The notes beneath the pieces are model-generated. The model did no database searches, was not told the origin of the DNA, and saw only the letters and a list, made by a program, of their open reading frames with translations. Both the position numbers and the translations under genes were made by a program. DNA of 64,000 nucleotides from Trichoplax sp. H2 (Eukaryota). Shown here in pieces: positions 15,715-58,150 of this stretch (position 1 is the first letter of the stretch; each line of letters opens with the position of its first letter). The stretch spans positions 1 to 64,000 of the forward strand of contig NOWV01000169.1 in assembly GCA_003344405.1 (NCBI GenBank). Direction: 5' to 3'.

Positions 15715-15876
15715 CTAGTCTAAACTCCTGTCGCTTTGCTGACGGTTTACGATAATGTACCCATTTATTAATATTTCGCCTTTCAGATCGCTGACTAACT
15801 GACATTATCCTCTTAGAAACACTTTTTGTTATATGATATATAGCAATCAAAATAACCGGGACAGGGAACTACAGTA
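15715..15876 (-). mobile_element. Helitron-like element, internally deleted copy
   Basis: The reverse complement matches about 40086-40190 joined directly to about 40314-40372, ending CTAG|T. Confidence 0.75.
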
Positions 15877-24271: not shown

Positions 24272-26843
24272 TTACCGTTGCACTGATAAATTTCTTCCAG
24301 TCTCAGATGCCGTAATGATATCGTCTTCTTCGTCGGAATTTGAGCTGCTGAGTGATGGAGATGAAATGGAGCTGATATCATCATTGAATGAAGACAAGTC
24401 ACTCGTATGAACCGAACTAATTTGCTCTGAAATACCAGAAAGAGAATTATCTGATTCTCTTTCACTACCGCTCTCTGAATTTTTAATTTCAGAATATGTA
24501 CTTTGCGCTATATACCCATCTAATCCACAATTGAATGCAGCTTTATTCCTAATGTTCATATCTACAAGTATGCCTGTTTTGTCCAATTTTGAAGTCTGCG
24601 ATAAATTTAATACCATATCTTCGGTATGAGATGTTTCTGTAACATGATTAGAATAGCCGTCCTGAACTAAATCACGTTTATCAGTTGTTACTAAAGCAGC
24701 CGTCAAGTCATGAGGTACTTTAGCCGAGCTGTGACGCTTCTCTACGATATTATTTGAAGGTGTATCATCATTAAAATAGGTATCATGCAATACTCGTATA
24801 TCCGATTTCATATCAATTCCAATCCGTGAAGTATTTTCCACAAATGACGGTATCTGTTTAGCACTTGGAATTATACTAACATTTACGTCCTTGTCCAAAG
24901 GGGTACCCTTAGTCACTTTAAACATAGTAGAGCTCTCTTTATCTAAAGAATTTTCCACAACGCAGTTCGCGTTTTCAGCAGAATTTCCCACAGGAGGCGT
25001 AATGCATTCTGAGCATGGTTTTATAGCACTCTTAAAATTCTCCACAGACCTTTGTACACCAAGTCTAAAACTATTCTCCGAAACGATGTTCTTAGTAGCT
25101 CCAGCAGTGTTTTTAACAAGAACTTTATTTTCCGTTGAAACTTTTATAGTATTCCTAATCGCTTCCGAGGAATTCCTGCTAATCATTCTAGAATCTTCTA
25201 TGGAATGTTTTAAAATCGTTTTATTGCTATCAATTTGACTTCTTGGGTTACTTTTATTACCTTCCTGAAGACTTTTTGTAGCAACTGCTACACTATTTTG
25301 ATCGCTAGCGGAGATAATACTTGATGAACTACCGTTATTAAATAATGCCGTCCTGGCAGTCTGCTCCAATTGGATCTTGCTGTACTGAGCCTGGCTTAGT
25401 AAAGTTACTTCATCATTCGCTAAATTCTTTATCGAATTTACAGGACTACAGGTTTCTTGCTCCTTTTTTTCAAGTAATTTTTTTCGCTCTTCTTCTTTAT
25501 TTATGTAATCTCTAACCACATCCTCGATCCGTGATCGAAAATTTTCTATTCTTGATCTTAAATTCAATGAAATAATGCTATCCAATGTTGCTTTGACTTT
25601 GTTCGATCTACAGTTGCCAAAATATTCAAAATAATGTTAACTACTGTATCAAACTAATGCGTCGTAGATAATCCATTTTGCTTAATTTATTTGACCATGA
25701 AAGCTTTAGCTTTTAAGCACGGTAGAACTAGATATTAGTCTAACTATAGGTACTAACAGTACATTACTTTTAATATATCGCACTATAGTTCTGACACTAC
25801 GGAAGTTTTAGCAACTCGGTTGTGGAGCTGAAGTAATAACATACTACAGCAAACATAAGATATGAGCTCTTGAATGGCAGTACCTATCCACTTGTTGTCG
25901 TAAATCGTTTCTGTGCTTGTTCTTGTTACTAGATTCAGTCCATCTTTCGTTAAGTAGCCAATCGTTGACATATTCTTGTACAAAGTGTTCCAATTGACGA
26001 TATTTATCCTGTTATGCCATAAAGTTAGATATAAAAAGTTGCTTTCACATCTTCATATTTATAACAGTTGGTAGCCATGGCTTAGCACGCTAGTAGTAGT
26101 CTCCGGGTAGTACGTAGTTATTTTTCAAATGTTAACTATTTACCTTAAACACAGTTACTACAAAGATTCGCTTTACTGTACTGTACAGTAATACGAGTAC
26201 GTTTAAACGCAACAACTAATACAGTACTAATCTATGTACTAGCGAATAAACAACAAATGAATACACTGTAGAATATTACATACTGCAACCGAATTTATCG
26301 CATGAACAAGAATAGCATATCACCTTCATAAATAGCAGCTATAAGTTCATGACAGCTATGGGATTAAATTCTGTAATTATATTATATTATTAACAATGCA
26401 CAGCGAAGATGTACCAAATATATAATACCCTATACTATACGATGTAATATTGCACGTACTGTATACTAGAGTAATAGATATGGTTGATCGAGAACTTCAC
26501 TTAACCAATACAATACTGTAATTACTCTGCATAAAGTTTTGGATTCAGACCCTTTATATTTTAATTTTATATAAAGGTAGTTGCCCCCATAACATAAATT
26601 AAGTTTTATTTTAAGATTTAAGATTTACGAAGGCGTAGAACCATAAATTTGTGCTGTGCCTTGCAAGTGTACAGTATATATATATATATATATATACTGT
26701 ATCAGTCATGTCAATTTTTACTGACTTACCATTTGAGTTATATCACCATTGCAATCCCTTCTAAACTGATCAAAAACCCCCTCAGATTTGACAAACGCTG
26801 TGATTTTAGTAACGATCGGAGTCACATCAATATTTGGTTTCAT
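24272..26843 (-). CDS. BOD1/BOD1L1 (Shg1-like COMPASS-associated) family protein with a long low-complexity C-terminal region
   Basis: Exon 26843-26730 MKPNIDVTPIVTKITAFVKSEGVFDQFRRDCNGDITQM, exon 26008-25884 DKYRQLEHFVQEYVNDWLLNERWTESSNKNKHRNDLRQQVD, and exon from 25607 RSNKVKATLDSII...FRSRIEDVVRDYI resemble the BOD1 domain (KSxGxFDxFRRDC). It continues as the 437-aa Ser/acidic-rich ORF. The 3' end is uncertain (possible extra exon 24233-23967). Confidence 0.8.
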
Positions 26844-31022: not shown

Positions 31023-34000
31023 TTATAGTAAAAATACTCGTTTTAATTCGCTAAACGGGTAACTAGTATTAGTTCGTGGACAGATTACTGTTCCATGGTT
31101 AGAATCGGCTAATTTCAGTAGAGCCTGTATAAACATATGAAGTCAAAAAGCTCACGACAAATCACAAGAAATTCTAATCTTTGGCATAAATAAAACCATC
31201 AAGGAAATTCAATTATTTTTCGTTATGTCGCACCTTCTCGCTGTAAACCATTCCATTTGGCAACATCATTGGAGGATTGTTACCATTCATTTCTTCGCCA
31301 CTTATTCTGCATACCAAGCGTGAGTGAGAACAGTGCGAAAATGGCAGAGTTCGAGCTATTTCATTGAAGTTACTGCTACATATTGGACATTGCAAACTCT
31401 TCTTGTTTTCGTCGTAGCAGTCACTGTGCATCCGTAGTTAAGGAACTAAAATCTTGCAGTAGCAATCTTTACTGTTATAAAATATATCTTATGCAGTAAC
31501 TTCAGTACAATTTACAGCTTTTTAACTTAAGTAAATACAGTACAACAATATAGCTAAAACTGCGTAATGTTGACATATGATACGGAGTTTTTAAAGACGC
31601 CAGACCAACTTGAAGGATAACAGAGAACATTGATCGTTCTTTAAGTTGATACAAGGAAAAAATATCATCCCGAAACTGTCGCAGTAACATTTTCCATCGC
31701 TGTGGATCATACATATCCTAAAGAACAATATCATTATTTTACAACAAACACAGCACTGAGTTGCTTCATGGTACCGTAATGTACATATTTCTTTACAAAA
31801 TTTTGCTGACGAAAAGAATCATACCAGGACTACTGAAGATAAAGAGTCGTTTTCTGTCTCCCTTTTGCTTCAGTAGTCCCTGCCGTATGCAGCGTGATAC
31901 GGGTGCAGTTATAGTGTTTAAATATAGGCCTATGACATAAAGTATACTAAACTATCAGCTGTATGTACACATGTGTTTCCAGATACCAATTTACTGTTAC
32001 GTACAAATCAGAGTCGACTATGGGTACAATTGTACTTCGTGCAGTCATTAGGAAATGATAGTAAGGTTAAGGGCAGAAAAGATACATAGACAATAGATTA
32101 TTACAGTATAACTGTAGCTTGCAAGTGAAAGCGAAGGAAATAGTAAATATTTTCTAAAAGAAAGTGCGATGAAGTGTATGATGGTATTGATATCAAGACA
32201 GCATACACGATCATAAACGTACTTGGTACGGTTGACAATTGGTATCTATCTGAAAAGCCAATAACCCCATTGCACGCTTCATTAAGTCACAGCTGCTTGA
32301 ATCTATATTAGAAAAGTGTCGCCTTGCGTACCTGCATATTGATCAATAATTCATACTTTTAATTGCAGATTACACTATATGTGGTCAAACATGAAGATAG
32401 TATTGTAATATACGCTATACTCATTGCTTACTTTACTGCATCTAATCGCTTTCCTTCCCGGATGAGTTCGATAAATTCTTGCATTCGTAAATTAAACTCT
32501 AACGTGCTCTAAACGTGATGTAATTCCGTTTTGTAATCATTATAAAAACAAACCCGTATAAATAGGTATAAAGTGAAATCGTGGTACCAATAAATGAACG
32601 ATACTAGCCTAGCATACTTATATTCAATTCTACGTACAGTACCTTAATTTTTTTTAATCTGGACCTATTATCAATACACCAGTTTAAGCATAAAGTGATA
32701 TTATTAGCTTGCAAGGAAGCTTCAATTTTTCGCGCAACGGTGAAGATTTCGATGTTGCACAGCCCCTAAAATTAGTAATGTTAAAATAAAAATCTTTAGG
32801 ATAAAGCTACGAAAATTAACTACTTAATTAGTAAACACTGGCAAGCATCTTACTACGATGTCAATTACAGCTAGGCGCAATAATTACTTAATAGTTCGTT
32901 AACTGAACAGCACATTGCTGTATATTGCATCAAACCTCAATATCAGATTCTTCCATGAGATCAATTGCAGCCTTGTAATATCCTTGTCGTAATAGATGAT
33001 CAACTATAAAACGATTGCAGCGTTTCCTCTGCCACATAGTAACTGTAAAATCATTTTCAGGCAAATCTTTCCTGACTTGATCCATTCTATCTTGCAAATG
33101 GCTAATTCTTAATTTACAGTTCTTAATACATCCTTGCTCTTGCTGGTAACAATCATCAGCCTTTAGGAATAAAGGATTATTAGTTGTTGAACAGTGAGAT
33201 CTTTAGCGATATGAATACTGTCTAAATATAACAAAATTTAGCTCCTTCTCTTAAACATTTTAATTAACCTTTCTTTTCAAAGCAGTTAGTTTCTGAACAA
33301 CACCTCCTAGAAAATCGGCGACTGAATCGATAGACTGGTTCTGTGAATCTGAAGAGCAATGTAGTATATCATTACTTCCTCCTAACACATTAGCAACTTC
33401 TCTATCGATTGCCTTTTGAGCAGTTCTGAATTTCTTGTTGAGGATCTCGTACGGTACCTAAGTAACGGTAGTTTATTTACAGTTAATAAGTTAAAAGTAA
33501 TACCAGTATAGCTTATAGCTAGCTATCGGATACTGACAATAACAGTACTTCCGATCCTAGAGAAATCATCTACGATCTGTAGTGTACATTCGTAACGTTA
33601 ACGACTACCATATCTTTGGCCGTAAGGTGATATACAGCTTATTAAGTGTAAATAATGGCATGAGTATAATAATTTTTACACTTTTTTTACTGTGATTTTA
33701 AACAGGATTCTTTCATCACACTGGCACAGTATTTGGATCATATGCAAGTATTTATTTTATATGTAGTGCTGGTATAAAATTACGAACTGCATTGTCTACA
33801 AAATAACCAGAACCAGCGAAAGACGCCAAAAACTCTGTATTAACCTACGTGTAATTGTTATTACAGGTAATTGAAATTTTTGGCAGTAAGCGGAACAAAT
33901 GTCGGACGATTTGGTACAGTGTTAATTTTCATATTTAGTATAATAATATAGCAAGTAAAGAAAGTACTGCGAACAAAACATTCAACCATTCTACCATCAA

Positions 34001-34189
34001 AAGCAATTGTCGTCCATCTGCACTTACTTTACTGCACTAAATAGCAAAGGAGTAACTGGTTTATAAAATTTCTCGTACAGCAGATTAATTATATAGTTAT
34101 CCGTTCATTGCAGTTCCTACTTTTAATGTTGAATGTTCCAGGGCTCGGATGTCAGGATATTCCCTCCTTGCAGCTTCTTTATCAACCAT
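31023..34189 (-). CDS. MAEA: CTLH/GID E3 ligase RING subunit MAEA (Gid9/Fyv10)
   Basis: Spliced [43 protein letters not shown]...[20 protein letters not shown]...[17 protein letters not shown]...[12 protein letters not shown]...CPICS...[41 protein letters not shown]...VICPRT...KRVFLL*. Confidence 0.94.
31825..31882. mobile_element. Small hairpin MITE-like element in a MAEA intron
   Basis: GGACTACTGAAG (31827-31838) and CTTCAGTAGTCC (31868-31879) form a perfect 12-bp inverted repeat. Confidence 0.6.
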
Positions 34190-34309
34190 CTCTTTTCAAG
34201 ATTCCTTACTGGCAGTCTCTTAAGATTCCTATTTGCTAAAATGCCTGAAGTACAATCACTGTCAGAATCTTAGAAAAGGTGCATCACGAAATGACGCTTG
34301 TGTTATTCT

Positions 34310-34520
34310 TACACTGTACTGTACGTACGTACTGTACAGTACTATCGTACAGTATTAGTACAGCGTAACTCCATTTTATTGATAAACAAATCCAATACAG
34401 TATACAGTACAGTACAGTACAAGTACAGTACAGTGTACATGCTACTGTAGCCAGCCAACTTGGTGGCTACTTTTGATAGCTTGTCAGCAGTCAGCACTAC
34501 TACAGTAAGTACAGTACTAC
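34310..34520. repeat. CAGTA/CTGTA cluster upstream of MAEA
   Basis: e.g. TACAGTATACAGTACAGTACAGTACAAGTACAGTACAGTGTAC at about 34396-34438. Confidence 0.9.
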
Positions 34521-34623
34521 AATTACCGACGTGCACTCGAACCAAAGAGTGGTGTCAATGTAGTTAAAATGGCTAGCAAAAAGTCGACCTATTTTTCTAT
34601 ACGATATTGATGCGGTCTTGAAG

Positions 34624-34680
34624 CATGGAATACTAGAAGAAGAAGGCAGGGTCTCCTTCGTTTTCTTCTAGTAGTCCATG
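34624..34680. mobile_element. Small hairpin MITE-like element (terminal inverted repeat about CATGGACTACTAGAAG)
   Basis: CATGGAATACTAGAAGAAGAAGG...CCTTCGTTTTCTTCTAGTAGTCCATG. Relatives at 31825-31882, 35720-35756 and 37004-37040. Confidence 0.65.
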
Positions 34681-34744
34681 GTCTTTTTCAAAATGTGCCA
34701 TGTACATTGTACGGTATACCAGGCCAGGGTAACAGAAAGAAAGA

Positions 34745-35330
34745 GGGATTGTTAACGATTTTCATTGAAAAATGTGATCGCTGACTGTTTTGCTAGTCAT
34801 TTCGCTATATCGGAAGACTGGAACCGTATACTATGCGTAACCAACATGGTAGCTACTTCGGACTTCGGAGCATAGCCGTAAACAGTACTGTACTGTACTG
34901 TACTGTATACGTACAATCGTCGTACAAGTTAGACGGTAAGCCTCTTTGATGAAAGTAATAGTAATTTAGTGTACTGTACTGTACAGTTCGAAACTGACGC
35001 ACGGGATATACGATTGTACTGTATACTGGAGTTTCTAACCTTAAAATAGCTGAAAAGCTGACATTTGCATATATTAGAAAAATTAAAATTTTAATTTAAT
35101 AATGTAATATTTTTGATTGAAATCCAAGTTGTGTACTTTTTAAGGNNNNNNNNNNNNNNNNNNNNGGGATTGTTAACGATTTTCATTGAAAAATGTGATG
35201 GCTGACTGTTCTGCTAGTCATTTCGCTATATCGGAAGACTGGAACCGTATACTATGCGTAACCAACATGGTAGCTACTTCGGACTTCGGAGCATAGCCGT
35301 AAACAGTACTGTACTGTACTGTACTGTATA
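34745..35330. repeat. Gap-flanking duplicated segments: 34745-34909 ~ 35166-35330 and 34910-35145 ~ 57545-57785
   Basis: Direct sequence comparison shows near identity with a few SNPs and indels. Runs of 20 N at 35146-35165 and 36231-36250. Confidence 0.93.
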
Positions 35331-35577
35331 GTACGGAATATACTGTGTACAGTGTACAGTACTGTATGTATCATTTCATATCATATGCGTTCACTATCTT
35401 TCAATATTGGCTGGCAGGGGGATTTTGGGAGAGAAGTATAAATTTTTTCATGAGTAGGCCCTGTTTACTGTACGTATGACTTTTAAATTGCTTCGTTTAG
35501 AACTTCAAACTGATGTAGGTGAGGCTTACAATGATCTTAAGAGTCACTTTGGCTGGTTTCAGGGGAAGCCTAGAGTA

Positions 35578-35621
35578 ACATTATCGTAAACCGTCAGCAA
35601 AGCGACGGGAGTTTGTACTAG
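35578..35621 (+). mobile_element. Helitron-like 3' end fragment
   Basis: ACATTATCGTAAACCGTCAGCAAAGCGACGGGAGTTTGTACTAG|T. Confidence 0.7.
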
Positions 35622-36204
35622 TGTTAATAAAAAAAATAAAATGTTGAACCTCCAGGTTTATCATGGACAGAAACATACTGTAGTATGCTTACTACTGTAC
35701 AGTACAGTACAGTACTGTACCATAGGCTGCTAGAAGAAGACTCTAGTAGTCCATGGCGGTAAAGCTTACTGTACAGTACTGTACAGTGTACAGTACAGTA
35801 CAGTACAGTACAGTACATAAGTGCGGATGCTAACTACCTTAGGCGGGTTGGTGTTTAGTACCGTGTTACTACTGTACCGTAGCAAAGACTGCTTGAGTTA
35901 GTGAAGTTGAGTCATCGCACGTGTGATGATGATACGGTGTATTAGGCACCGTACACTAGAGTACTGTACTTTACTGTACTGTACAGTACAGTGCATCTAG
36001 TGTTGTTTAATTAACTAATACTGTACAGTACAGCAAACCAGATTCCTCAACCTCAATCGCACTTCTATTTAATGTCAACTGAAATTACGGTACTGTACTG
36101 TACAGGTTCGAAACTATACTGCACTAACGGCAAACGGCAGTGCAGAACTTTACAAACGTTAGAAGATTTTTTTTAGAGTTGGGACATCATTATTATATCG
36201 TGCT

Positions 36205-36230
36205 ATGTCGGAAGCAGGCCCTCCACAACA
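36205..36230 (+). other. Second (allelic or duplicated) copy of the ATP5MK start, cut by an N gap
   Basis: ATGTCGGAAGCAGGCCCTCCACAACA is identical to 37459-37484. The region 35325-36230 is a polymorphic copy of 36631-37484. Confidence 0.9.
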
Positions 36231-36267
36231 NNNNNNNNNNNNNNNNNNNNTATATATAATAATGTAC

Positions 36268-36355
36268 CGGCCAGTAAATGAGATGATTGCAAGAAATGAA
36301 TGGCGGTTATTGGAGATGATATTGCTAACTGCTTGGCAATCACTTCTTTGGCCAT
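36268..36355 (-). other. Second (allelic or duplicated) copy of WDR6 exon 1
   Basis: The region 36251-36629 is a polymorphic copy of 57192-57550. The 88-nt exon matches 57209-57296. Confidence 0.9.
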
Positions 36356-36880
36356 TACTCTTGCATTAGTGTCTAGTATTCAGTAGTACACCAAAAGTTT
36401 TTACTAGATGCTGCAGCAGTGTGTCGTATACTACTGTGCAGTATATAGCAATTGGCTCTTTATGTTTTTATTACTTTTTATTGCAGTATTTAGTATTATT
36501 AAGTAATTTTATTATTGTAGTATTGACAGACCGCGACATATATACAGTTGTTTAATAAAGTAATATACCATCATTTTCAGATGGGTGTCCGGCCATCCGT
36601 TTTCACGTGACGTACTGTACATTCGTACATTGTATAGTACGTAACATACTGTACTGTACACTGTACAGTATGTATCATTTCATATCATATGCGTTCAATA
36701 TCTTTCAATATTGGCTGGCAGGGGGATTTTGGGAGAGAAGTATAAATTTTTTCATGAGTAGGCCCTGTTTACTGTACGTATGACTTTTAAATTGCTTCGT
36801 TTAGAACTTAAACTGATGTAGGTGAGGCTTACAATGATCTTAAGAGTCACTTTGGTTGGTTTCAGGGGAAGCCTAGAGTA

Positions 36881-36924
36881 ACATTATCGTAAACCGTCAG
36901 CAAAGCGACGGGAGTTTGTACTAG
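36881..36924 (+). mobile_element. Helitron-like 3' end fragment (counterpart of 35578-35621 in the duplicated segment)
   Basis: Same 44-nt sequence with the same flanks. Confidence 0.7.
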
Positions 36925-37458
36925 TGTTAATAAAAAAAAATAAAATGTTGAACCTCCAGGTTTATCATGGAAAGAAACATAGTATACTTACTACTGTACT
37001 GTACCATAGGCTGCTAGAAGAAGACTCTAGTAGTCCATGGCGGTAAAGCTTACTGTACTGTACTACAGTACATAAGTGCGGATGCTAACTAACTTAGGCG
37101 GGTTGGTGTTAGTACCGTGTTACTACTGTACCGTAGCAAAGACTGCTTGAGTTAGTGAAGTTGAGTCATCGCACGTGTGATGATGATACGGTGTACAGTA
37201 TTAGGCACCGTACACTAGAGTACTGTACTGTACTGTACAGTGCATCTAGTGTTGTTTAATTAACTAATACAGTACAGTACTGTACTGTACAGCAAACCAG
37301 ATTCCTCAACCTCAATCGCACTTCTATTTAAGGTCAACTGAAATTACGGTACTGTACAGGTTCGAAACTATACTGCACTAACAGCAAACGGCAGTGCAGA
37401 ACTTTACAAACGTTAGAAGATTTTTTTTAGAGTTGGGACATCATTATTATATCGTGCT

Positions 37459-38199
37459 ATGTCGGAAGCAGGCCCTCCACAACAGTTTCAAGGTTGGCAG
37501 CGTTATTTTAATTCCAGCACCATAGCTGGTAAAAGAAATGTAAGTATGGTACTGTATGTACGGTACATCTCATATTCTCATTTACGTTGTCACGTTACTG
37601 TACTGTGCTACCGCAAAATTTGTACATACCGAGCTCATTTATATGGTAATACTCGATTGTTTTTGAACATAAACGTGCAATAGGGTTCGGTTAGGGTTAC
37701 TAGCTAAAGGTTACACTGTTTTATACTTTTACACCGTAGTAAAGTAGTAATTCTGAAATTAAAGTCTGACATCGCTTAGAAAGTTCGAAATAGTGTTATT
37801 ATATACTGTAGTTCATCTGCTCTGTTCATGACTGGAGTTTTACGGTAAGTGTCTCACTTTATTAGATCATTTAAATTTTGTTCTGCGGAAAGTTTATATC
37901 AAGATATAGAAAAGTAAATGGTAATGATCTTTAACTTACTACTAGTTAATTCGAAATATATCGAAGCTATAGAAATAAAGTTAATAATATTCGTGTATTG
38001 AACTTCTCAGTAGGCTAGTAATAGCTTATGTTGCTTGATCAATTTATAGTAAACGTGTGCATACGAGTATAAATGAATTACGCATATGTAACTATGGCAG
38101 ATTTCAAGATTCTTAATATTCTGCTTGTAGATCGTTCTTGCTACCTACGGAACTATCTTTGGATTCTATTGCATCTACCGTATGACTAAGAGAAAATAG
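37459..38199 (+). CDS. ATP5MK: ATP synthase membrane subunit k / DAPIT (USMG5), 2 exons
   Basis: Exons 37459-37539 and 38131-38199 give MSEAGPPQQFQGWQRYFNSSTIAGKRN/IVLATYGTIFGFYCIYRMTKRK*, matching the DAPIT pattern F-x-G-x-x-x-YFNS-x-T-x-x-G-x-x-N-x-VLATYG. Confidence 0.9.
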
Positions 38200-39782
38200 T
38201 GCTCGGGTTGACATGGCGCATGGTCACTAATGGTTACGCAACCCAAGGATCGTACATGATAAAAAGAAAAAACGCAGCAGCCAAACTTAGCCACCATAGA
38301 TGATGCAAGATCATATATTTTAAATCGAGTAAATAATATATTTATAATATAATCAAATTGCTATGTACCAATATACCAAATGTATGCGTGTTGTGGCTTT
38401 CTAAGATACTGTGATGAATGCTGGATTGGTGACTACGTATTTAGCCGTAATGTTCTGGTTTTGTTGTACATGTTAAGATTACGTGATAATCATAATCGGT
38501 GGGGTTATTAAGTTTGCTGATAGAATTTGATGCTCTTCGAAAGTGTTACTGATTTATCAATGTAAACTTAACCTGTTAGCTTGCTTAGTAGTTATTCGGT
38601 AAGAGTATAAAATAAAAAGAGAGCGTTTTAATACATATGGATTGTAGTTGAATTATCTACATGTGTATTCACAACTATATATCTGCCTCGGCAATCTTTC
38701 TTTAAAACCATCAATGGTTATTATTATTAATTGTCTAAATCGTGTGAGAACTGTCTATTATACATATTTGATTACTGATACAAATCTACTCCTGATCAGC
38801 ATTTTATTTTGTTTTAGTGATAACATTCTTCTACTTAGTACACGGCTTTTTCATCTTCGATCTTGATTTCAGGAAGTCTAATTACGTCATATGAAGTATT
38901 TGTATTGACAAATTATAGTTTATGCATTAGTAATAATTGTTATTACGCCTAAATTATTCCTATGTGATAATTAATTAGCCATAGTTATTTTAGGTGTAAT
39001 TAAGCGTATAAACTATATCATGCCTGTCACGACTGCAAGTTAAACTTAAAAAGATCTCCTTTACTTTCACGTTACCAACGAGTGGCCACAAATAGCAAAT
39101 TACCAACGAGCAACTTAATGACTTATTCAAATTTAATATAAGCAGAAGTCTCCCTTTCCTCTATCGTATCTCCTTTTTATATCATTACAGTTAATACATC
39201 AATACTCTATATTTGTAAGGTAAGTTAATAAAACCACGACAACAGTAAATCCCACGAGCAGCGCGGGGGGTATTTATGCTACTGTTAGATGACTCTGATT
39301 ATGGGTTCATTTCAATAGGTCAGTATAAGATTCTTACAGTACTTTTTACCTAAAGATTTCTTCATGTAAAACGAATAGCTCTAAGGTAGTAATTTCTACA
39401 GAGTACTGATTATTAAAATAGTATTCGTTATATCGTTAAGGGTGGCCACTGGGCCTTTAAATTTTGATTTGAGGTAATGCTCTGATGAAAATTGAATAAA
39501 CATAGAATCTTTATAGAGTTTTCTACACAGTTATTTTGATTGTTACATTTTCTTATGACGGTTGTTATCGACAGAGCAAGCTTTGCTTGCATACTCAATC
39601 GATCCTTAGACACATTATAATGATTGGTATAGTATTCACCACAGCACTAAGGACATTGTACCGCACTGTAGATATCTTACAGTACCTGCTAATCTTAACT
39701 TGGTATGTCCATCACCGTACAGTACATTAGTTATCATAATGCGCTTTGGATTATTAACTAATCTTAATATAGCATAGTACAT

Positions 39783-39845
39783 TACTATTAGCGGGATATA
39801 TAATATCGAATGATAATACTATCTGTTAATTTTATTAACAAATAG
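39783..39845 (+). mobile_element. Degenerate internal fragment of the same Helitron-like family
   Basis: CTATTAGCGGGATATATAATATCGAATGATAATACTATCTGTTAATTTTATTAACAAAT resembles 40266-40324. Confidence 0.6.
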
Positions 39846-40085
39846 AGCATAAACTTATATTTGACAGTTTCGCTTACCAACCTTAACGTAGCATTAATAC
39901 TGTATATAGTAACCATCCTTATTCGGTAAACATACTAATACGAAAGTTACTAGGAAATTTGAATTGGTATAGAAATGAATGATCTCTAGGGTTTATGTAA
40001 ATATTATTGAGAAGGTATAAGTGATTGATACACATCAGTAGGTACTATTAGCTCTATTGCTCTCATGCATTTCGTAGTGTTACCC

Positions 40086-40372
40086 TACTGTAGTTCCCCT
40101 GTCCCGGTTATTTTTGATTGCTATATATCATATAACAAAAAGTGTTTCTAAGAGGATAATGTCAGTCAGTCAGCGATCTGATAGGCGAAAGCGAAGTGAA
40201 CAACGTGGAAATGTACGATCAGTACGTACATGAAATCAATCTGTTTTAAATATAGTAGTACCCGGCTATTACCGGGATATATATGATGTCGAATGGTAAT
40301 ACTATCTGTTAATTATTAATAAATGGGTACATTATCGTAAACCGTCAGCAAAGCGACGGGAGTTTGGACTAG
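40086..40372 (+). mobile_element. Non-autonomous Helitron-like element, longest copy
   Basis: Ends with the GC-rich hairpin CCGTC-A-GC-AAA-GC-GACGG, then 9 nt, then CTAG followed by T, the canonical Helitron 3' end. No TIR or TSD seen. The 5' boundary is approximate. Confidence 0.75.
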
Positions 40373-41770
40373 TAGGTTTTAAAATATAATCTCACGACAG
40401 TAATTATCCCTAAAATGGTAAACACAACCAGTAATAATCCCTAATATGGAAATAAACTGAACATAACAATGCCAATGTTTGTCATTGACTTATCCTAGCG
40501 TTTTAATGATCTTACTGTTCCACAGTAAATTGGACAGATATAAATACTACATCAGTACTTGTGTAGAGCTCATCAGATGGGATATATAGTGTTACTATCA
40601 CTGCGCACATTGAATATGTCCATTCAGCAGTTTTTAACCTTAAAATCGTATACAAAGGTCATGGCTTTGTGCTCCGCTAAACATTCTTGAAATTAATCAA
40701 GAGCTCTGGTACTATTTAAAGGATAATGCTAAAATTTTGCATCTACTAAGGATTCAGTGTCTTAATAACTTTGAATTTGAGATAAAGAGTACAGGAAATT
40801 TCAATGTAAATTTCATCTGATGTAATTTTGTATTAAAATTCTAATTTATCACCTACACCTGTACACGAATAGACATGTAAAAAATAATAAAAATCGCAGG
40901 TGTAATTAGATACAGCTCAGATACCTTACATCAAGCATCGGAAATTTATAGTTACCACTTCAAACGTATGACATACACTATTTATTGTCACAATCTCATT
41001 TCGAAGTAATACTTTCAATACAACGGTGATCAGTATCGTATTCATTATTAAGAGGTCCTTCCGTTTAAAAATCGCAGATACGAAGGTATCACACATTCGT
41101 GATATCGGACAATTAGGATTTCAAAACAGTCCGTTATTCATACATTAAATTTTATTTTATGTTCTGTAATTTGGTCTAGTACAGTGACCCGTGTGATTTA
41201 GGTCAAAGAAACTTCAACGACGTTCCGACAGTAAATTGGCAGTATCTCAAGTCAAAAGAGGACTAGCGATATTGGCGCTTCATGGTTTTAATATACCATC
41301 ATTTCTATCTAACTAAATCGGCTAAAAATGTTGATCTTTATTGGCTTATCTCCCCTAGGTGGTAAACTACAAAGGGAGAAATCTTGCTAAGTTATTCTAG
41401 AGTAAGTAGTGTAGCATATCGTGCACAAAAGCAGTGTTATTGAATCTACATTTCCAGCAATTAATTATGAGTCCTCATACCGCATATCTATAATATGGGT
41501 TCAATTTCAGCTGCAACGTAAGAATTGTAACTCTTTATAAAATTTTTAATTAATTAAACAAGGCAGGATTTAAGAGTAGTAAAATAAAAGTATGTAGATA
41601 ATAATTTATTAATGTTAATACTAGATAGCACTGTAGCATTGCTGCGAATTTATAATATAAGTATATTTATAAGCAAGCAAGTTAGTAAGTCTGCTATTTA
41701 TTTTTCAGATATCAAAAACAAGTCCATATGCTACAGACTGAGTCAGCTGTCAAAAATATGTGATAAAAAA

Positions 41771-44036
41771 TTATCTTGGGGAGTCATTTTCGTGGGATTC
41801 CAGCAATCGCTTTTTTGACATAAATTCTCTTTCATGCTCAAATTCGATATTTGATTTTGGTAATAACCTCGAAACGTTTTGCCTAGCCTCGGTATCTGCA
41901 GGCAATATTTGATCAAATTCTTCGATATCACTGATATTATACTCATCTATGTCATCGTCAGCTATAAATTCAATTTCCTAGAGGTATTTAAGGCGATAGC
42001 AGATAAGAAACAAATACTTTGTGAGTATATATTAAGATCTTAAGATAGTATTTTACTTCTACTTCGTCGTCACTTTCTATTTCTTTTAGCTGATAAAGGG
42101 ATAAAGAACAAAACATAAGCAAAAAAAACGAGTCTAAGATAGCTTTTATAAAGAAAATATAAATCATAAATATATCTTTCAAGGATAAAAATAACCTTAT
42201 CCTCTTCCCTTATGTCCATCTCCTCACTATTAAGAGCACTTTCGAAAGCTTTCTCAGGAAAGTTATATATTTCTGCATACTAGTATCAAAGCGAAAAATA
42301 CAGTATTAAAACTTGAAGAAAAAGGTAAGACAGGGGTATCATCAACATCACACTCTGAATCACTTACTGTTCCTTTTCGTAACCTTTCTAGTAATTCATT
42401 TTCAACCGCATTCTCAATTCGTGCAGCAATCAAGGCTTTCTCCTAAACAACACACATTCTTAACTGTTTATATATTTCAAGATTTCACAGAGTCTTAAAG
42501 ATTTTGATAACCTCTCGCTTTTTGTTCACGTTTTCAGCCTTCTTACTGATGCCCACTAACACTTTCTGGCTACATATACATTGTAAGTTTGTGATTATCT
42601 TTTATTCGTCAATGTGAATATAGAAATTGTGCTATACCGAAATAAGGAGTGATGCAAAATTTTTTCTTACTTTGTTTTTAACTTCAGTTTTCTCATTTTG
42701 ATAAGATACTATTCAATAAAAGAAAGTATATATTTCACTATCTACTTTATTAATTACAATAATGACCTTCCTGACATACTAAGCACCAAAATCAAAGTCA
42801 CATACCTGGGTAATTTTTGTAAACCGTTGCTTGCACTTATGAATCGAAAAATTTGGCCAATACATCAAATTTTTATCAATCTGATAACAGCACCAACATA
42901 TTGAATTATAATTTTGAGCTATCACATAATATAACATCGCAACAATAGAAATTCTTGTACCACATTTAGAGCTTTCTCATAGTTTTTTGGTAGCTTTATT
43001 TTTTCCCACAGTTTAGCTGGTGAATGAGCTCGCTCAATAGTTTTTATATATAAAAAGCAATTGCCTATATAGAAGAACAATCGTAAATTTACAATTTGTG
43101 TGACAGTCTCCTAGTTAGCTAGCTAGCTAGCCCAGAGATGCCTTCATAAGCTACTGTTGTAGTATAAGTCTACATAGCAACAAAACAATCGAGTCAAGAA
43201 ATCTAGCGACAAAACTCTACTTGAGCTGCAGTATAGTTCTTTTAAGTACAAAGGGCAGAAAATTTATGTTGAGGAGACCTGCTTTGCATTTTTATGCTAT
43301 AAACGTTAAATTATAGTAATATATTATAATACAAATGGAAGATGCTCAATAACCAACATTAGACGCGTCCAATCTAATTAATTACTAATATACAAATGCA
43401 AATATATATATATATATACTTGATTTATGAAATGATAACTAAACATTCTTAACGGACTATACGAAATCAGACTTTGTTAATTACCGTTTAACTCCTTGAC
43501 AGTGGCGTATCGGCTGTTCGCTAATGGGCATGATTGCCTATTACATAATCCAGTTACATTATATTCATTACGACAGAAACTCTGCGCCTTTGTCCTAAAA
43601 TATGAACATGCGCTCACTACTAAGATCTCAACATTCGTACTGTATATTCATAGCACATTTACATTCCGTCGAATTACATTTAGCTTAAAATGATAACTGA
43701 TTAATTAGCATTCAACTTAAATTATATTATTCAAGAAAATCTGCATAAACACGTTCTTGTTACTTATAAAATAATTACTGGCTGTTACTGAATATCATTG
43801 GACATTTACTTTGCTTTAAATGAACAGAATCCGTTATTGATAACGCTCCATATCACCTATTTAAAGTATAAGAAAATACGAATAACCTTAGGTCTTTACT
43901 GAATATGACAAATTAACATATTACTGCGGCTCCAAATCTGAATACTGTACATTTTAACAATAATTATAATTATAACTAATCAATAGCAATACAGTATTAT
44001 TTTGTGCAACTGTAACCTCACCTCATCATTCTGCAT
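41771..44036 (-). CDS. MAK16: Ribosome biogenesis protein MAK16
   Basis: Spliced [55 protein letters not shown]/...[21 protein letters not shown].../...[20 protein letters not shown].../[33 protein letters not shown]..., then an acidic tail. Stop TAA at 41773-41771. Confidence 0.95.
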
Positions 44037-44079
44037 GTTGCTCTGTACAAACCTTCGCAAAATCAAATAAAAAAGCTTG

Positions 44080-44800
44080 CAATATACTGTACAGTACTGT
44101 ACATATAGAAAAGCGAGTATGTAAACCTAAGAAGGGTATATACTGTACGTACTGATCTCTTATTGTCAAGAATTTGGTAGATTAACTAAGCACTGGTATA
44201 ATACTGTACTGTACAGTACAGTGTACACTGTACAGACTGGAGACTCGTGGGCATTCTAACTTACAGTAGTACTGTACAGTACAGTACAGTACCGTACTGT
44301 ACTGTACGTTCACTAGTATCTCAACACCAATATTTAGTTTTCGTGTACTCTACTACAGTATTTACTGTACTGTACTGTACTGTACAGTACGTTAGACCCT
44401 TCATACTGTACTGTACAGTACAGTACGGTATTGTGAGACGTTTCAGCATACTGTACAGTGTACAGTGTACTGTACAGTATAATTACAGTACAGACTACTG
44501 TATCGAGTGCAGCCAGTACTGTACTGTACAGTACAGGCAATGTGGAAAATACTGTACAGTATACAGTACTCAGCGTTGTTGATAATAATGTTTACTGTAT
44601 GTTTAATGTTATACTGTATACTGTACATACTGTACCGTACTGTAAGCTGCAGCGAAAAGCCTTCTGCTCACAGTAATGTACAGTACAGTACTGTAGTGCA
44701 CAGTATTGTGAACAAATAACATTGGACACCTTTTTTTACATACTGTACAGTGTACAGTACAGTAAAGTAAGACGGTATTGTACTGTACTGTACATTACAG
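44080..44800. repeat. Dense CAGTA/CTGTA pentamer array in the MAK16/DHX15 divergent spacer
   Basis: Dozens of TACAGTA/TACTGTA units in mixed orientation, interspersed with unique sequence. They generate the spurious YSTVLYCTVQ ORFs in the track. Confidence 0.95.
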
Positions 44801-44877
44801 TGAACCGTAACTATAACGCAAATTATACCCATCAGATATCGATAGTGATTGCTCCCTGAGCTATAAGTGGAATAGCC

Positions 44878-49447
<4,570 letters not shown>

Positions 49448-49984
49448 AATTTATTTTAACGTAAAGATCCTAAGACCTAATTTATATAGTATGGTATAGT
49501 CATATTAATATCGATCGAAATTCTTGATACGCGTATTCACAACATACTGTAGTATTAGCAATTGATTAATATGCAGGATTTTCGCAATGGATACCGTAAT
49601 ATGGGTAATGCTGTATAATTACATCTGCTATGTGAGGTAGCGATCTAGTATCGAGTTGCGTTTAACTGTCGTCGGTAATAAAGGCTACGTATATATATAA
49701 GTTGAATGATTAGTTATATAATAGAAATTTAATCCGAAATACTTCCAATTCATCGTTCCTTTGTTTGATTGAGGTTTTTTCTTGATGAATATAGGACGTG
49801 TTATATAGATTGCGCTATCTTAATCCCTAGCTATACGGCTAATAGTGATGTGCATATCTGTATAAAATAATAAGGGAGATGGAATATCAATTATTCCGCT
49901 AATTGATCGACCGTTTATTGATGTATTTTAACGCCGATGAGTTTATGAATAAACTTCGGATTAAAACATGGAATCAAGAATTTT

Positions 49985-52900
49985 TCACTGTTCATCAGGC
50001 TTTATAGTAACGTGAAAAATTTCTATACCAGTGCCGCAAATACCTATTATCCATTCATTGCATCTGTCACAAAATTAAGTGAAACAATTTCTCAATAAGC
50101 ATTTGCTCTAAAAGAAATTTATAACCAGAAATATCGTTTCGCATTGACTATTCGTGCGAAATTTTCAATTTTTTTGCTTTAATAACCTAAAAAAGCTAAA
50201 TGTTTCTTACCCGATTGGACAAGCATGTAGATTTGAAGCGTCGGCAACATTAACAAAACTGGAGAATATCCGCTTTACTGAACAAAACTACAATATGTTA
50301 TAAGTGATTAATTACAATTACTAATAAATATTCTAAATATGAGTACAACTAGGAAGAGTTCTTTACTTTGGCATCAGTTGGGATATACCAAATTTTTAAA
50401 CGTTGATCAATTGATACAGAAACTATATATGTAGGGCTCAAGAACTGGATACCTACGTTGTAATAAAAAAGGACTTTTAGACATTTAATAATTTAAAGTA
50501 TTTAATTACGGTTAAATTTACATCACTTGACGAACCGGTTATTGAAGCAGTATGTGCAGAGTCGATAATTTGAGAATTCAAGACAGTAACGCAACCATTA
50601 CCGCTCTCATTTATGATAATGCAGCACAGAAAGATTTTTGTGTCGTCTCCTGCGCTAGTTATCTGATACCTATTCGTTATTACTTGTATTGTCATATTAG
50701 AACAAAATTGATGGACATGACTTAAGATCGTTTTTCATTCCAGACTTCTTGTAAAATAAGTCCAATTGCACTCTGACAAAAATTTTTATAATCACATGAT
50801 AATTAATCAACACAAGTGTAATTTCTTACCAGGATCTCGCATCGCATTGATTTTATTAACACCACAGGCATGGGCTTTCAGGACGTCAGGTTTATCTACA
50901 GAAATTCAGTATTAGTTCACTGAGAAATACACGCACACATCATAAAATAATCTTAATAACATAGACCCGTTTCATCTCAGAAGACTTTACGATTATTATA
51001 TAATTTTAGCAAGTAATAGCGTCAAATTTCCTAACTACATTTAGGATCAAGCAAGACTTCTTCTTGTGATAAGGAAAACTGGTCCAATAATGCAGTGTCG
51101 ACTTGCCAAATAGCAATTTTGCCATCAGTCGCACCACTAAGTAAAAAGGGGATAGAATAACGGTTTGCATCTGAGCTATAGATGAAGTAATCAATACTAA
51201 GAATGCAATGCTGATGATAACTCAATTGCCCAATAAACTTAAATTTTTTCTTGATTGCATAAAACCCGTATAGTCTGAAATGCAGTACATCGATAAAAAA
51301 AGTTAAGAACGTAAATATCAACAATTATTGTTATCTTTAAAATATGCAGCGGTACCTAATTAATCCGTCAGAGCAAGCGGCAGCAACGAAGTATATGCTT
51401 TCGTCAGTAAACTTGCTATAAATGGTTTGATCAATACAAAAAGATGCAAGAGCCATGATACGGCTTTCCAATGATGAATCTTGCTGTGTTTTAACTTTTT
51501 TACGGAAATTTATTTCATTTTGTGATAATTCAGAAATAAGAGTAACATCGGAGTCGTTATAGTTCTGACTCAGTGCAACGTCACCATCGCCACAAGCTGG
51601 CAGAGTTACCTTCCAGGCCTTTAGAAGCATTCGTCCACCAGCAGTAAATAAAATGATAATCCGGCCTCGCTCAGAACCATCAAGATTACTTTGCAGGCGT
51701 GAGCCCACGATTGCTCGAATACTCGAAATATGGTCTCGGCATACTTTCAATCTTCTTAGAAATCCCTCATTTCCAGTAACTTTATTGATGTTAAGGCATA
51801 TCCGATAGCATATAACTCTTTCAGAATTATCTAATAATTTAATTTTGAACACTCTAAAAGTAAACTGTCTACTGAAGAACGCTAAACAGTAAACTGTTGT
51901 AAATACTTCGGTATTTAGTAACTTCACTGGATACATGCTGTAATAGTCATATTTGTATCTTCGCTACTAGTGACCGTTATCCCTGAATGTTGCGATGTTG
52001 CTTTATTCCACAAACATGAGTTCATGATTTTTTAGTGACATAGATTATTACGAATGCAAACTTAAAAATACGATGAATATAAAAATGTGATTCTTATTCT
52101 ACATAAAAGAATTAAATACAATACTGTACAGATCTCTTACTAGCTCCAAGAGGTTTTCGCCGCCAATCCAAAAGATAAATATCCGTAATTTCTCTGCCAT
52201 GAAGTGATTCCTAATTACAAATAGGCGGGATAATTTCGTATAATTTTCTTGAATATCTTCAGTAAACTCAAGGATTTTACTACCGTATTAGCATAGTACC
52301 TTTAAAATTACTTTACAAGTAGGTTTTGTCAAAGTGAAGTTGCAAATACAGGCTTTTGTTGCTTTAATATAAGCGAAGGTACCTCTTACACCCCCATCCT
52401 TTCAGAACCGATAAAATGGAAAATCAATATTTTGAGTACGTACTATGTTAAGACTTTTAAAGGCAAATATCGAATATTAAAATATTTATCAATTAAAGCG
52501 GACTTCTTCGATTAGGCAAATATCCCAGCCACGATGCCCTCCTCCACATTCCATTTGAAAAATAACTTCATTTCTTTCCACATGCCAAATAACAAGATTG
52601 CTCGAACGAAACGCGATTATTATTAAGTTGCCATTACTGATTGTAATTAAACGTTCTATCCAAGTCAACCCTTTAAACGGAACCTAGTTACATAACGAAT
52701 AAAACTTTCAAAAATCTAGCTAAGTTTCTAAAAAGCTAGCCAAAAGTGTATCATTAAAATACAGCAATACAAGCGGTAGTCATTTACCTTAAGTTTTTCA
52801 ATTAGCTCAATACCACGTTCTGTTTTTAGAAACTTGCAATACATTCCGTTTCTACCACAAGTAAAAACATGATTTCTAGAACTACATATCGACGTAACAC

Positions 52901-55900: not shown

Positions 55901-57296
55901 AAACGCTTTTCAGAGTAGTGAGGAATTACTAGTGATTGGTGTAATCATGCAATTGGCAACGTCCTTATTTACTGGAAGTTGATAGCCGCTTGAATATTAA
56001 GTGTCAAAATAATAATAATGGAAAAGTATAATCACATGCACTCATCTACTGACATACATTTACATTTTACGCCGTATAAGATGAAGGGTGATATCTACAT
56101 GCTAAGGGTAATTCGGTATTCACACATTTTACACATATTTCAATATACAGGATAAGATAAATAAGCGGTATAGTTTAGTAGCCACACAGGATAGATACTT
56201 GAACTTACTCAAACAAATAACGATCACTACTTCCAATAACGTTGATGATTCGGAGGCATTTTTCACCAAATATTGCCACGACATAATCGTTATTAGAAAA
56301 AGCTGATTTTAAATATACAAAATAGTCGTCAAAACATTTCTTACCCATGCCCAAGCAATCATCATTGGAGTTCGCCGACAACTACAATATTACATCTTTT
56401 TAAACTAATCTGCCGAGCTGCAGTATTGCCTAATAGTGAGCTCTACGGACGTACCGTACCTATTGTACTGTACTTATCCGAAACTGTATGTCAACATCGG
56501 ATTACTTTAATTATTTTAACGTGAAAAGATGTAATTAACTCAAAGATCGCATTTTCATACTTTGTACGTCTTCATTGCAGTAAACGGTATTACATTAATG
56601 AAAATATTTTAAAATAGTACTCTGACAAGACGTAATGGATCGATTTATGCCAGCAGGAAATCATAGAGTTATAGTAATGTAAGCGACAAATCCACAACAG
56701 CACAGTATCGATTCTTAGCCATTTATTATTTTACTTTTTAGTGTTTGCTAATTACACCGATTCTATGCTATCATGTATACGCGTATGGTTAACCTGATCG
56801 TATTCCATGGATATTACAACCATGCAATACTTTTGATGTGTTCTGCTTACAACCAGTTAAAACATCGAAAAGATGTAAGTATTCTCCTTCACCTAAATTA
56901 AATTGCGCAAATTTATAACGATTAAGATTAAAATATCTTGCATATACGTACGTGTATACCTAAATTTAAAGCTTGATGCGACAACTGCATGTAAAACACA
57001 CATATCCACTTAAAATGTGCTTGTGTTATTATAAATGATGCAAGCACACAGCACATAGGATAAGTACGAACTGTATCTCCTATTTGCAGTTAAAATATTA
57101 GAAGTTTTTACTTTACATAACAAATTATCCATGAGTATGTTACAGAGTGTACGTATGAAACATAGTGCATGTTATCATTTTGCATATACTGTATATATAA
57201 TAATGTACCGGCCAGTAAATGAGATGATTGCAAGAAATGAATGGCGGTTATTGGAGATGATATTGCTAACTGCTTGGCAATCACTTCTTTGGCCAT
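49985..57296 (-). CDS. WDR6: WD repeat protein WDR6 (Trm734, tRNA 2'-O-methyltransferase cofactor), about 20 exons
   Basis: Exon 1 MAKEVIAKQLAISSPITAIHFLQSSHLLAG; later LALGSGTVYNQILLW, SASDDRSIRLW, FYGHKARVWD, ATGGGDASIRLW, ICGDRHGTVHVY, MECGGGHRGWD, ESLHGREI, VTSSEDT, DHISSIRAI, LFTAGGR, AAACSDGLIR, SGATDGKIAIW, SAGDDT, AHTASITG, VSVSIDQRLKIW, ICGTGIEIF. This motif order is characteristic of WDR6/Trm734. Confidence 0.9.
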
Positions 57297-57625
57297 TACT
57301 CTTCCATTAGTGTCTAGTATTCAGTAGTACACCAAAAGTTTTTACTAGATGCTGCAGCAGTGTGTCGTATACAGCAATTGGCTCTTTATGTTTTTATTGC
57401 TTTTTATTGCAGTATTTAGTATTATTAAGTAATTTTATTATTGTAGTATTGACAGACCGCGACATATATACAGTTGTTTAGTAAGGTAATATACCATCAT
57501 TTTCAGATGGGTGTCCGGCCATCCGTTTTCACGTGACGTACATTCGCACAATCGTCGTACAAGTTAGACGGTAAGCCTCTTTGATGAAAGTAATAGTAAT
57601 TTACAGTAGTGTAATGTACTGTACA

Positions 57626-58150
57626 GTTCGAAACTGACGCACGGGATATACGATTGTACTGTATACTGGAGTTTCTAACCTTAAAATAGCTGAAAAGCTG
57701 ACATTTGCATATATTAGAAAAATTAAAATTTTAATTTAATAATGTAATATATTTGATTGAAATCCAAGTTGTGTACTTTTTAAGGTATCATTGACTGATC
57801 GTTAAGCGAAAAAATAATCCAGATTTGATATCGACAATGCAGTTTAAATCGATATCAAAGAGGTGCGATTAGCAGAATTTCCTCGCAAAATGGCACAAAA
57901 CGATGCTAAATCGCTCAAATCGCACTCCTTCGAGATAGATTGAAACTATACCCTCGGTATTAAATGTGGATTTTTTACATTTAGCAATCAGTCAATGACT
58001 ATCTTAAAGTACACAACTTAGATTTCAATCAAAGCATTGCGATATTAAATTATTCTAATTTATGTAAATGTCAGTTTTTCAGCTGTTTTAAAGTTAGAAA
58101 CTTCCTAGCCAATCGTACAGTATACCACGTGCAGTACGTCCATTTCGAAC
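57626..58150. mobile_element. ~525-bp imperfect palindrome (foldback/MITE-like element)
   Basis: Arms pair over about 240 bp: GTTCGAAA/TTTCGAAC, GTTTCTAAC/GTTAGAAAC, CTGACATTT/AAATGTCAG, TTTGATTGAAATC/GATTTCAATCAAA, AAGTTGTGTACTTT/AAAGTACACAACTT, TCATTGACTGAT/ATCAGTCAATGA, GTGCGATT/AATCGCAC. Confidence 0.85.

Follow-up and report, generated by a model that had tools for sequence, protein, structure and literature searches.

Mixed-orientation ACAGT-class pentamer arrays in a Trichoplax promoter are unlike slippage arrays and may have accumulated as transposon excision footprints

Results

Pentamer units crowd a divergent promoter

We analysed 64,000 nucleotides of Trichoplax sp. H2 (assembly GCA_003344405.1, contig NOWV01000169.1, positions 1 to 64,000 of the forward strand; hereafter the window), and in particular the arrays of the pentamer CWGTA (W is A or T), anchored at TA dinucleotides, that crowd its region around 36 kb. 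The window is AT-rich animal DNA with ~33% G+C. Because a gene with CTLH and RING domains reads leftwards and a gene for a small ATP-synthase subunit starts at 37459, the 34.3-37.4 kb region is a divergent promoter. The placement of the arrays in 5' regulatory DNA, claimed in a preliminary description of this sequence, is thus borne out.

31216..33202, minus strand: exons of the CTLH/RING gene (CTLH E=4.7e-08; RING below cut-off), which reads away from the arrays
34317..36102, no strand: left part of the pentamer cluster, 49 TACWGTA units (21 A-centred, 28 T-centred), including haplotig sequence
36613..37810, no strand: right part of the pentamer cluster, 23 units (5 A-centred, 18 T-centred)
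37459..37680, plus strand: first coding exon of the ATP-synthase subunit gene (Pfam ATP_synth_reg, E=4.9e-08), with arrays directly upstream

The heptamer TACWGTA occurs 311 times in the window, about 15-fold more often than in 30 dinucleotide shuffles (mean 20.2, maximum 28). Among all 1,161 TA-NNN-TA heptamers, the CAG/CTG class accounts for these 311, while the next class reaches 75. The units comprise 134 with an A centre (CAG) and 177 with a T centre (CTG), and they form 205 perfect chains TA(CWGTA)n, of which 152 have one unit, 26 two, 10 three, 11 four, 5 five and one eight. Most single units (117 of 152) lie within 200 bp of another chain. Fourteen clusters, spaced 4-14 kb apart, hold 277 of the 311 units, and those that could be placed lie between identified genes; one array, at 43.6-45.8 kb, is directly upstream of a DEAH helicase gene. 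ACAGT-class units make up nearly all of the 48 Tandem Repeats Finder (TRF) rows for the window, and a scan of the window against Rfam returned no family.

These arrays fit the ACAGT pentanucleotide repeat known from Trichoplax promoters. In the parts of Wang et al. (2010, PMC2871265) available to us, ACAGT is the most abundant microsatellite of Trichoplax adhaerens and 54% of its copies lie within 1 kb upstream of genes. The window shows the same features, as ACAGT-class units dominate its tandem repeats and sit just upstream of genes; it differs in its density of perfect runs (40 longer than 12 bp in 64 kb), which is roughly ten times the genome-wide density implied by the counts in that source. 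The available text of the paper treats the repeat as a microsatellite and possible transcription-factor site; mixed orientation, TA anchoring, single units and footprints do not figure there, nor does the word 'footprint'.

One explanation for this placement is that a promoter or chromatin factor would bind the units, recognising TACWGTA or else GTAC at five-base intervals, and that selection maintains homotypic clusters of them. The concentration of units in clusters between identifiable genes and the published bias towards upstream regions (PMC2871265) both favour it. So does the recovery of a repeating ACAGT motif by a neural network trained on Trichoplax Micro-C maps, as given in the available part of the Chimaera preprint (10.1101/2024.11.14.623548). 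The flanks around units are unrelated to one another, as they would be around binding sites. However, no binding protein is known, and the allelic differences described below point to a special mutational source. As a full account of the arrays we consider this explanation improbable. It is compatible with either of the two mutational origins weighed below, does not replace the best explanation, and leaves the origin of the units secondary.

The arrays are unlike slippage arrays of the same motif

As a control, public metagenome contigs were matched with an orientation-blind pattern, (GTACW)x5 followed by GTAC, which yielded at least 110 contigs. The pattern selects for long arrays, the short chains of the control are neighbours of long ones rather than independent cases, and all its figures are counted among the matches listed. 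Slippage (ACAGT)n microsatellites of this kind share with the window the 5-base unit and length change in unit steps.

Orientation separates the two sets. Within perfect chains of the window, adjacent units have opposite centre bases in 38 of 106 pairs (36%), compared with 71 of 1,961 pairs (3.6%) in the control, which upholds the earlier claim that slippage arrays are single-orientation. The difference holds at every chain length: chains of two units are pure in 14 of 26 cases in the window and in 226 of 236 in the control, chains of three to four units in 8 of 21 versus 197 of 211, and chains of five to eight units in 1 of 6 versus 132 of 146. Since the same motif is nearly always single-orientation in control contigs, mixing is not intrinsic to the sequence.

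The surroundings of the chains differ as well. A degenerate unit matching at four of five positions abuts 19% of 410 chain ends in the window and 70% of 2,167 in the control; for single units the corresponding values are 14.5% of 304 ends and 60% of 917, and background TAs abut a near-unit in 3.8% of cases. Thus, control chains are pieces of long decaying arrays, while the units of the window stand mostly alone in unrelated sequence. The longest perfect chain has 8 units in the window and up to 23 in the control. Slippage microsatellites are therefore longer than the window arrays, lie amid decayed copies, and keep a single orientation, with 96.4% like neighbours against 64% here.

Seven of 110 control contigs have more than 25% of units in the minority orientation. 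Two of these were inspected: one (L058) is a higher-order repeat of ~57 bp, and in the other (L098) the second orientation comes from an unrelated satellite. Four metagenome contigs (L044, L086, L092 and L104) carry ~95-131 ACAGT-class units within 2-3 kb, nearly all of the same orientation; the motif thus also forms dense arrays in other, unidentified organisms.

Two other sources of mixing were considered and rejected. Point mutation of the centre base is contradicted by the 33 units centred on G or C, which are rare beside the 311 centred on A or T, when A/T switches make up 36% of adjacent pairs. Selection for palindromic unit pairs would raise the number of A-T/T-A junctions, of which 38 are seen and ~52 expected; this lack of excess also speaks against the maintenance of binding sites by selection.

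Together, these comparisons show that the window arrays are unlike slippage arrays of the same motif and suggest that their units are not made mainly by replication slippage. The units do not run head to tail in one orientation, and at the sites described below the extra units are not copies of an adjacent unit.

Alleles differ by whole units, including at lone TAs

Self-BLAST of the window revealed four duplicated pairs (A/A', B/B'', C/C'' and D/D'), located around two assembly gaps and at 57 kb.

34745..34914, plus strand: segment D, with its allele D' at 35166-35334 (98% identity)
34907..35145, plus strand: segment C, copy of 57542-57785 (C'')
35146..35165, no strand: assembly gap of 20 N
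35166-36230, no strand: haplotig between both 20-N gaps, delimited by self-BLAST and public runs
35311..36230, plus strand: segment A, allele of A' (36612-37484)
36231..36250, no strand: second assembly gap of 20 N
36251..36615, plus strand: segment B, allelic to 57192-57541 (B'')
36612..37484, plus strand: segment A', the allele continuous with the main contig
57192..57785, plus strand: contiguous B''-C'' locus, with the short state of the third site listed below (TA 57539-40) and the long state of the fourth (57602-57608)

The pairs behave as alleles. Four public sequencing runs (X1, X2, X4 and X9; two organism labels) were mapped as contigs onto 34001-54000. At SNP 35553, which separates A from A', only the A' state was present (X1 49/49, X4 33.3/33.3; X2 and X9 without cover). 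SNP 34779 gave the D' state in X1, X2 and X9 and the D state in X4; SNP 36363 gave the B'' state in X1 and the B state in X2, X4 and X9. At these three diagnostic positions every covering run thus has a single state at full single-copy depth, whereas paralogues would show both states in each genome. The allelic status proposed in the preliminary description is therefore supported. Segment C is taken as the allele of C'' by extension from B. D and D' both terminate in the chain CAGTA(CTGTA)4.

Global alignments of the duplicate cores were tabulated, leaving out the start of pair A (35311-35371), which has no unique alignment. Over 1,538 aligned columns the copies differ by 16 substitutions (1.04%) and 15 internal gap runs; pair A/A' contributes 793 columns with 8 substitutions and 12 gap runs, of which 9 are changes in pentamer units. 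Whole-unit length polymorphism, a feature of slippage microsatellites, is thus present, with 11 of the 15 gap runs being unit changes; the others are three 1-bp runs and one 15-bp non-unit indel at 36432. The unit changes measure 5, 5, 5, 5, 5, 5, 5, 10, 15 and 12+17 bp, where the 12+17 bp belong to a single complex array. As described earlier, these changes consist of CWGTA modules anchored at TA; the exact 5-bp differences make up seven of them, and the rest are of 10-17 bp. At 36019 the alleles read T-A-a and A-A-T-T-a in unit orientations, so the new units are not copies of the adjacent unit. The 15-bp indel at 36432-36446, TACTGTGCAGTATAT, is not made of whole units but includes TA-CTG-TG-CAG-TA.

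At four sites a plain TA in one copy corresponds to TA followed by CWGTA in the other, and the inserted pentamer duplicates no adjacent sequence. All eight coordinates quoted for these pairs in the preliminary description reproduce exactly.

35676..35682, no strand: lone unit TACTGTA; allele is the plain TA 36980-81; nearest other unit 10 bp off
37194..37200, no strand: lone unit TACAGTA; allele is the plain TA 35940-41; nearest other unit 20 bp off
36613..36619, no strand: lone unit TACTGTA; allele is the plain TA 57539-40; nearest other unit 27 bp off
57602..57608, no strand: lone unit TACAGTA; allele is the plain TA 34967-68; nearest other unit 8 bp off

Units are thus gained or lost between alleles at lone TAs. 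The 5-bp indels outside chains are, in 4 of 4 cases, TA versus TA+CWGTA without an adjacent template. The claim that units arise where none pre-exists holds in this sense, with other units still 8-27 bp away. A confinement of 5-bp indels to existing arrays had been named as an outcome that would speak against a footprint origin; 4 of the 11 unit indels fall at a lone TA and the other 7 in or at the edge of chains.

Differences of a single unit also bear on selection for binding sites. Four of five are 5-bp indels and one is a substitution (34973 region, TACTGTA versus TAATGTA), so the gain and loss by point substitution that this explanation would lead one to expect is not what is seen. Because of these indels, a special mutational source would still be needed if the units were binding sites.

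The unit is identical to canonical Tc1/mariner footprints

The pentamer unit with its TA is identical to the canonical footprints of the Tc1/mariner transposon Sleeping Beauty, TACAGTA and TACTGTA, as the preliminary description had recognised. In the available part of the relevant preprint (bioRxiv 10.1101/659086), these footprints result when CAG ends next to the duplicated TA are cut with a 3-base stagger and the mismatch in the centre is then settled in one direction or the other. The likeness extends to the net gain of 5 bp at a TA and to the presence of both centres: C-(A/T)-G is retained in 134 CAG and 177 CTG units, and all four lone events change TA into TA-NNN-TA, with the duplicated TA on both sides of the scar. 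TA anchoring of all 311 units follows from the definition of the census. Known Tc1/mariner footprints differ from the window in being single scars at former insertion sites, whereas here they would form arrays.

Two further features are consistent with an element of this kind. At position -1 of unit-bearing TAs with non-unit-like flanks (n=254), A has a frequency of 0.43 and T of 0.19, against 0.31-0.33 and 0.33, respectively; A-TA-T is the preferred target context of Tc1 and Sleeping Beauty. In addition, the 7-base variant TA-CA(G/C)TG-TA occurs 19 times where 1.1 are expected (17-fold), 18 times within 30 bp of normal units, and is ten times commoner per unit than among the control matches listed. 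A cut five bases into CAGTG ends would leave just this class, including its G/C ambiguity; duplication of a GT/AC dinucleotide would give it too. Examples lie at 35348-35356 and 36657-36665, where pair A begins and its two alleles differ in the centre G/C; this CAGTG/CACTG difference and several overlapping unit changes fall within the initial 60 bases of the pair.

On the sequence evidence, a footprint origin fits best: it would account for a period of 5 bases, for the anchoring at TA, for two alternative centre bases and for new units at lone TAs. We then propose a model for the formation of the arrays. New modules would be donor-site scars of a cut-and-paste Tc1/mariner-type element that inserts at TA and has CAG...CTG ends cut with a 3-base stagger. 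Excision would leave the duplicated TA and three bases of the element, with the centre resolved to A or T. Units would in this way come, and probably also go, as discrete modules anchored at TA (TA to TA-C(A/T)G-TA), and each scar would supply a further TA. Slippage may afterwards copy neighbouring units into short same-orientation runs, and the units may be held in intergenic promoter regions by selection, by preferential insertion into open promoter DNA, or by a combination of these.

Points that weigh against a footprint origin

Several observations weigh against this model, and many of them favour a process that does without a transposon. In such a process, a lineage-specific habit of replication or repair would add and remove units, in either orientation, in or near arrays that began from chance TACWGTA seeds. 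Candidate processes are fold-back priming, strand switching, and templated insertion of the polymerase-theta type through TA microhomology, and the unit itself, GTAC+W, is a near-palindrome.

The first group of these observations concerns position and orientation. The other units found only 8-27 bp from all four lone-TA events make copying from neighbours possible, and the 7 unit indels in or at the edge of existing chains point in the same direction. Isolated units, at least 200 bp from any other, number only 35, about twice the expectation, and chance alone offers ample seeds at ~20 TACWGTA per 64 kb. Orientation is not independent between neighbours either: 68 of 106 (64%) are alike where 51% are expected (p=0.004), and clusters differ in their A:T ratio (p=0.016-0.045), although the two clusters that hold the allelic differences share allelic sequence and are not independent samples. 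The two orientations therefore mix far more than in slippage arrays but not as freely as had been claimed, and slippage or local copying must act too.

The second group concerns the element itself. No TA|CAG...CTG|TA element with true inverted ends was found in the 64-kb window, where all matches were array against array; one candidate pair of ends (32635/36097) matched at 13 of 14 bases and then diverged, and was rejected. No transposase-like reading frame is evident among the 18 of at least 110 aa in the window, and the ten scanned against Pfam gave no transposase match. In the available text of PMC2871265, transposons make up 0.13% of the Trichoplax adhaerens genome and none is active; Tc1/mariner elements are represented by 11 fragments and 3 intact single-copy reading frames without inverted ends, and one family of MITEs, miniature transposable elements with inverted repeats, has ~20 copies. 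The CAG-terminated, TA-targeting element that the preliminary description called for thus failed to appear, either in the window or, as an active element, in this survey.

The products and their history provide a third group. Near units there is scarcely any enrichment of the non-canonical Sleeping Beauty-type scars that are common in cell culture (TACTA/TAGTA, TACATA/TATGTA and TACGTA, just 1.15-2.1x). We know of no genome rich in active CAG-ended Tc1 elements that builds such arrays. The direction of unit change is itself inferred in the model. A rough estimate sets four lone-TA events beside 16 substitutions in 1.5 kb; such a ratio would call for many element copies, or for a few that are very active, and the published counts would allow only the latter.

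A transposon-free process nevertheless has difficulties of its own. It would have to account for the almost invariable single orientation of the motif in the control matches listed. The lone insertions are clean in 4 of 4 cases, adding 5 bp with 2-base homology and no loss of flanking sequence, which would be atypical of templated end joining. Furthermore, 81% of chain ends abut unrelated sequence. We regard such a process as somewhat unlikely, and a footprint origin of the units as the reading to be preferred, though tentatively.

One site bears on polarity. In a repeat family of ~100 copies, the sequence at 39713-39719 reads CCGTA-CAGTA-CATTAG, and a copy at 9.7 kb (~9730, minus strand) reads CCGTA-CATTAG. 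Sequencing runs show the unit at 39717 in most genomic copies and its absence from a minority that includes the 9.7-kb copy, a distribution that is compatible with loss without clearly favouring either direction; the difference could be a loss or a subfamily difference. It is in keeping with a reversed polarity, in which a site-specific cut at the flanking TAs, followed by rejoining, would excise units precisely (TACWGTA to TA) from arrays that would be old and shrinking. The 15-bp difference at 35697 (T-AAA-T versus T-T) would also be one step if it were a deletion. However, no enzyme is known that removes 5 bp between two TAs, and the origin of the units would be left unexplained. Decayed units around chains are also few (19%, against 70% in the ordinary arrays among the matches listed), which argues for young units with fast turnover. 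A reversed polarity is therefore, in our view, very improbable.

A multicopy element adjoins the arrays

A second repeat occurs in the same promoter. Its core is invariant, with the hairpin CCGTC-AGCAAAGC-GACGG and a fixed end ...ACTAG followed by T, and its 5' extent is variable. It usually adjoins pentamer arrays, and one copy lies inside the 34.3-37.4 kb promoter.

35578..35632, plus strand: end of the multicopy promoter element, hairpin CCGTC..GACGG and then ..ACTAG; allele at 36881-36941
9490-9614 (minus), 15713-15776 (minus), 40249-40390 and 63370-63445: other copies, found by sequence comparison

Read depth at 39.3-40.7 kb is ~100x single copy in four runs (in X1, 5,000-9,000 compared with ~65). 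A scan of metagenomes for the core gave 0 matches. The element is probably the transposon-derived (Mutator) promoter motif of Kim et al. (2025, PMC12221973), to judge from an 'ACGG' description in the available part of the Chimaera preprint (10.1101/2024.11.14.623548).

The hairpin followed by CTAG recalls Helitron 3' ends, which we take to be a candidate likeness. Homology between repeat copies starts or stops exactly at a pentamer unit, as in TACTGTAG... at 40086/15876 (minus) and ...ACTAG|TACTGTACACTGTACAG at 15713 (minus); element borders may be favoured places for units. Elsewhere in the window, a 454-aa serine-rich open frame (24272-25636, minus strand) has no Pfam family and no relative among longer proteins.

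Assembly of the promoter region

The pieces flanking the haplotig (34907-35145 and 36251-36615) together form a circularly permuted copy of the contiguous 594-bp stretch 57192-57785. In run X2, one contig of 12,752 bases consists of B-type sequence, 3,186 unplaced bases, and then 54000 down to 44785; the unplaced bases agree to within five bases with the distance from 57191 to 54001. This places segment B at the 57-kb locus. In the window, D joins C (~34907) and B joins A' (~36612) at pentamer units, with the short duplicated strings TGTATA and CGTACA. Either haplotigs were mis-assembled at these units, or the sequenced animal is heterozygous for a (reciprocal) rearrangement. A 22-kb tandem duplication was considered as an explanation of both joins and rejected, as depth is equal to the left and right of the region.

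Every array interrupts the contigs of the runs (Logan), and foreign contigs with arrays cross-map by the thousand, so read-based indel tables over arrays were left unused. Where run contigs cross arrays, differences of 5, 5, 10 and 10 gap letters, with 0-2 substitutions, again point to length change in whole units. Contigs across array regions differ from the window by many gap letters and few substitutions: X4 has 0 substitutions and 17 gap letters over 44477-44736, and 0 substitutions and 10 gap letters over 34913-35145; X9 has 0 substitutions and 10 gap letters over 43538-44143; and X2 has 1 substitution and 5 gap letters over 34428-34909.

Discussion

The observation on which the preliminary description rested is confirmed, and is stronger than its author could know from one sequence; its footprint interpretation is partly supported. 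The repeat itself is known, and the proposed mechanism would be a novel form of a known process. In the literature searched we found no description of arrays built from repeated excision scars, or of a footprint origin for this repeat.

DNA transposons have been linked to placozoan promoters before. Mutator-derived motifs cluster in housekeeping-gene promoters (Kim et al. 2025, PMC12221973, in the part available to us), and we count this targeting of promoters, along with the multicopy element inside the promoter studied here, in favour of footprints. The Mutator motif resembles the present case in being DNA-transposon sequence in promoters and differs in that its sequence is unlike the pentamer.

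In our model, we infer a transposase and a reason for the promoter bias. A resident Tc1/mariner-type transposase, low-copy or domesticated, would repeatedly insert and excise at promoter TAs, and its scars would accumulate into the dominant microsatellite, possibly co-opted for promoter or 3D-genome function. We put this fuller scenario forward with slightly more reserve than the footprint origin itself.

The origin of the ACAGT repeat has been open since 2010, as far as the available text of PMC2871265 goes. ACAGT is the commonest placozoan microsatellite, lies in most promoters and is picked up by chromatin-contact models, and the idea is directly testable on public placozoan genomes. A footprint origin, if true, would reveal a new route to tandem repeats and make clear how a transposon can shape a genome that seems almost devoid of them; the arrays would then be a molecular record of transposase activity at promoters.

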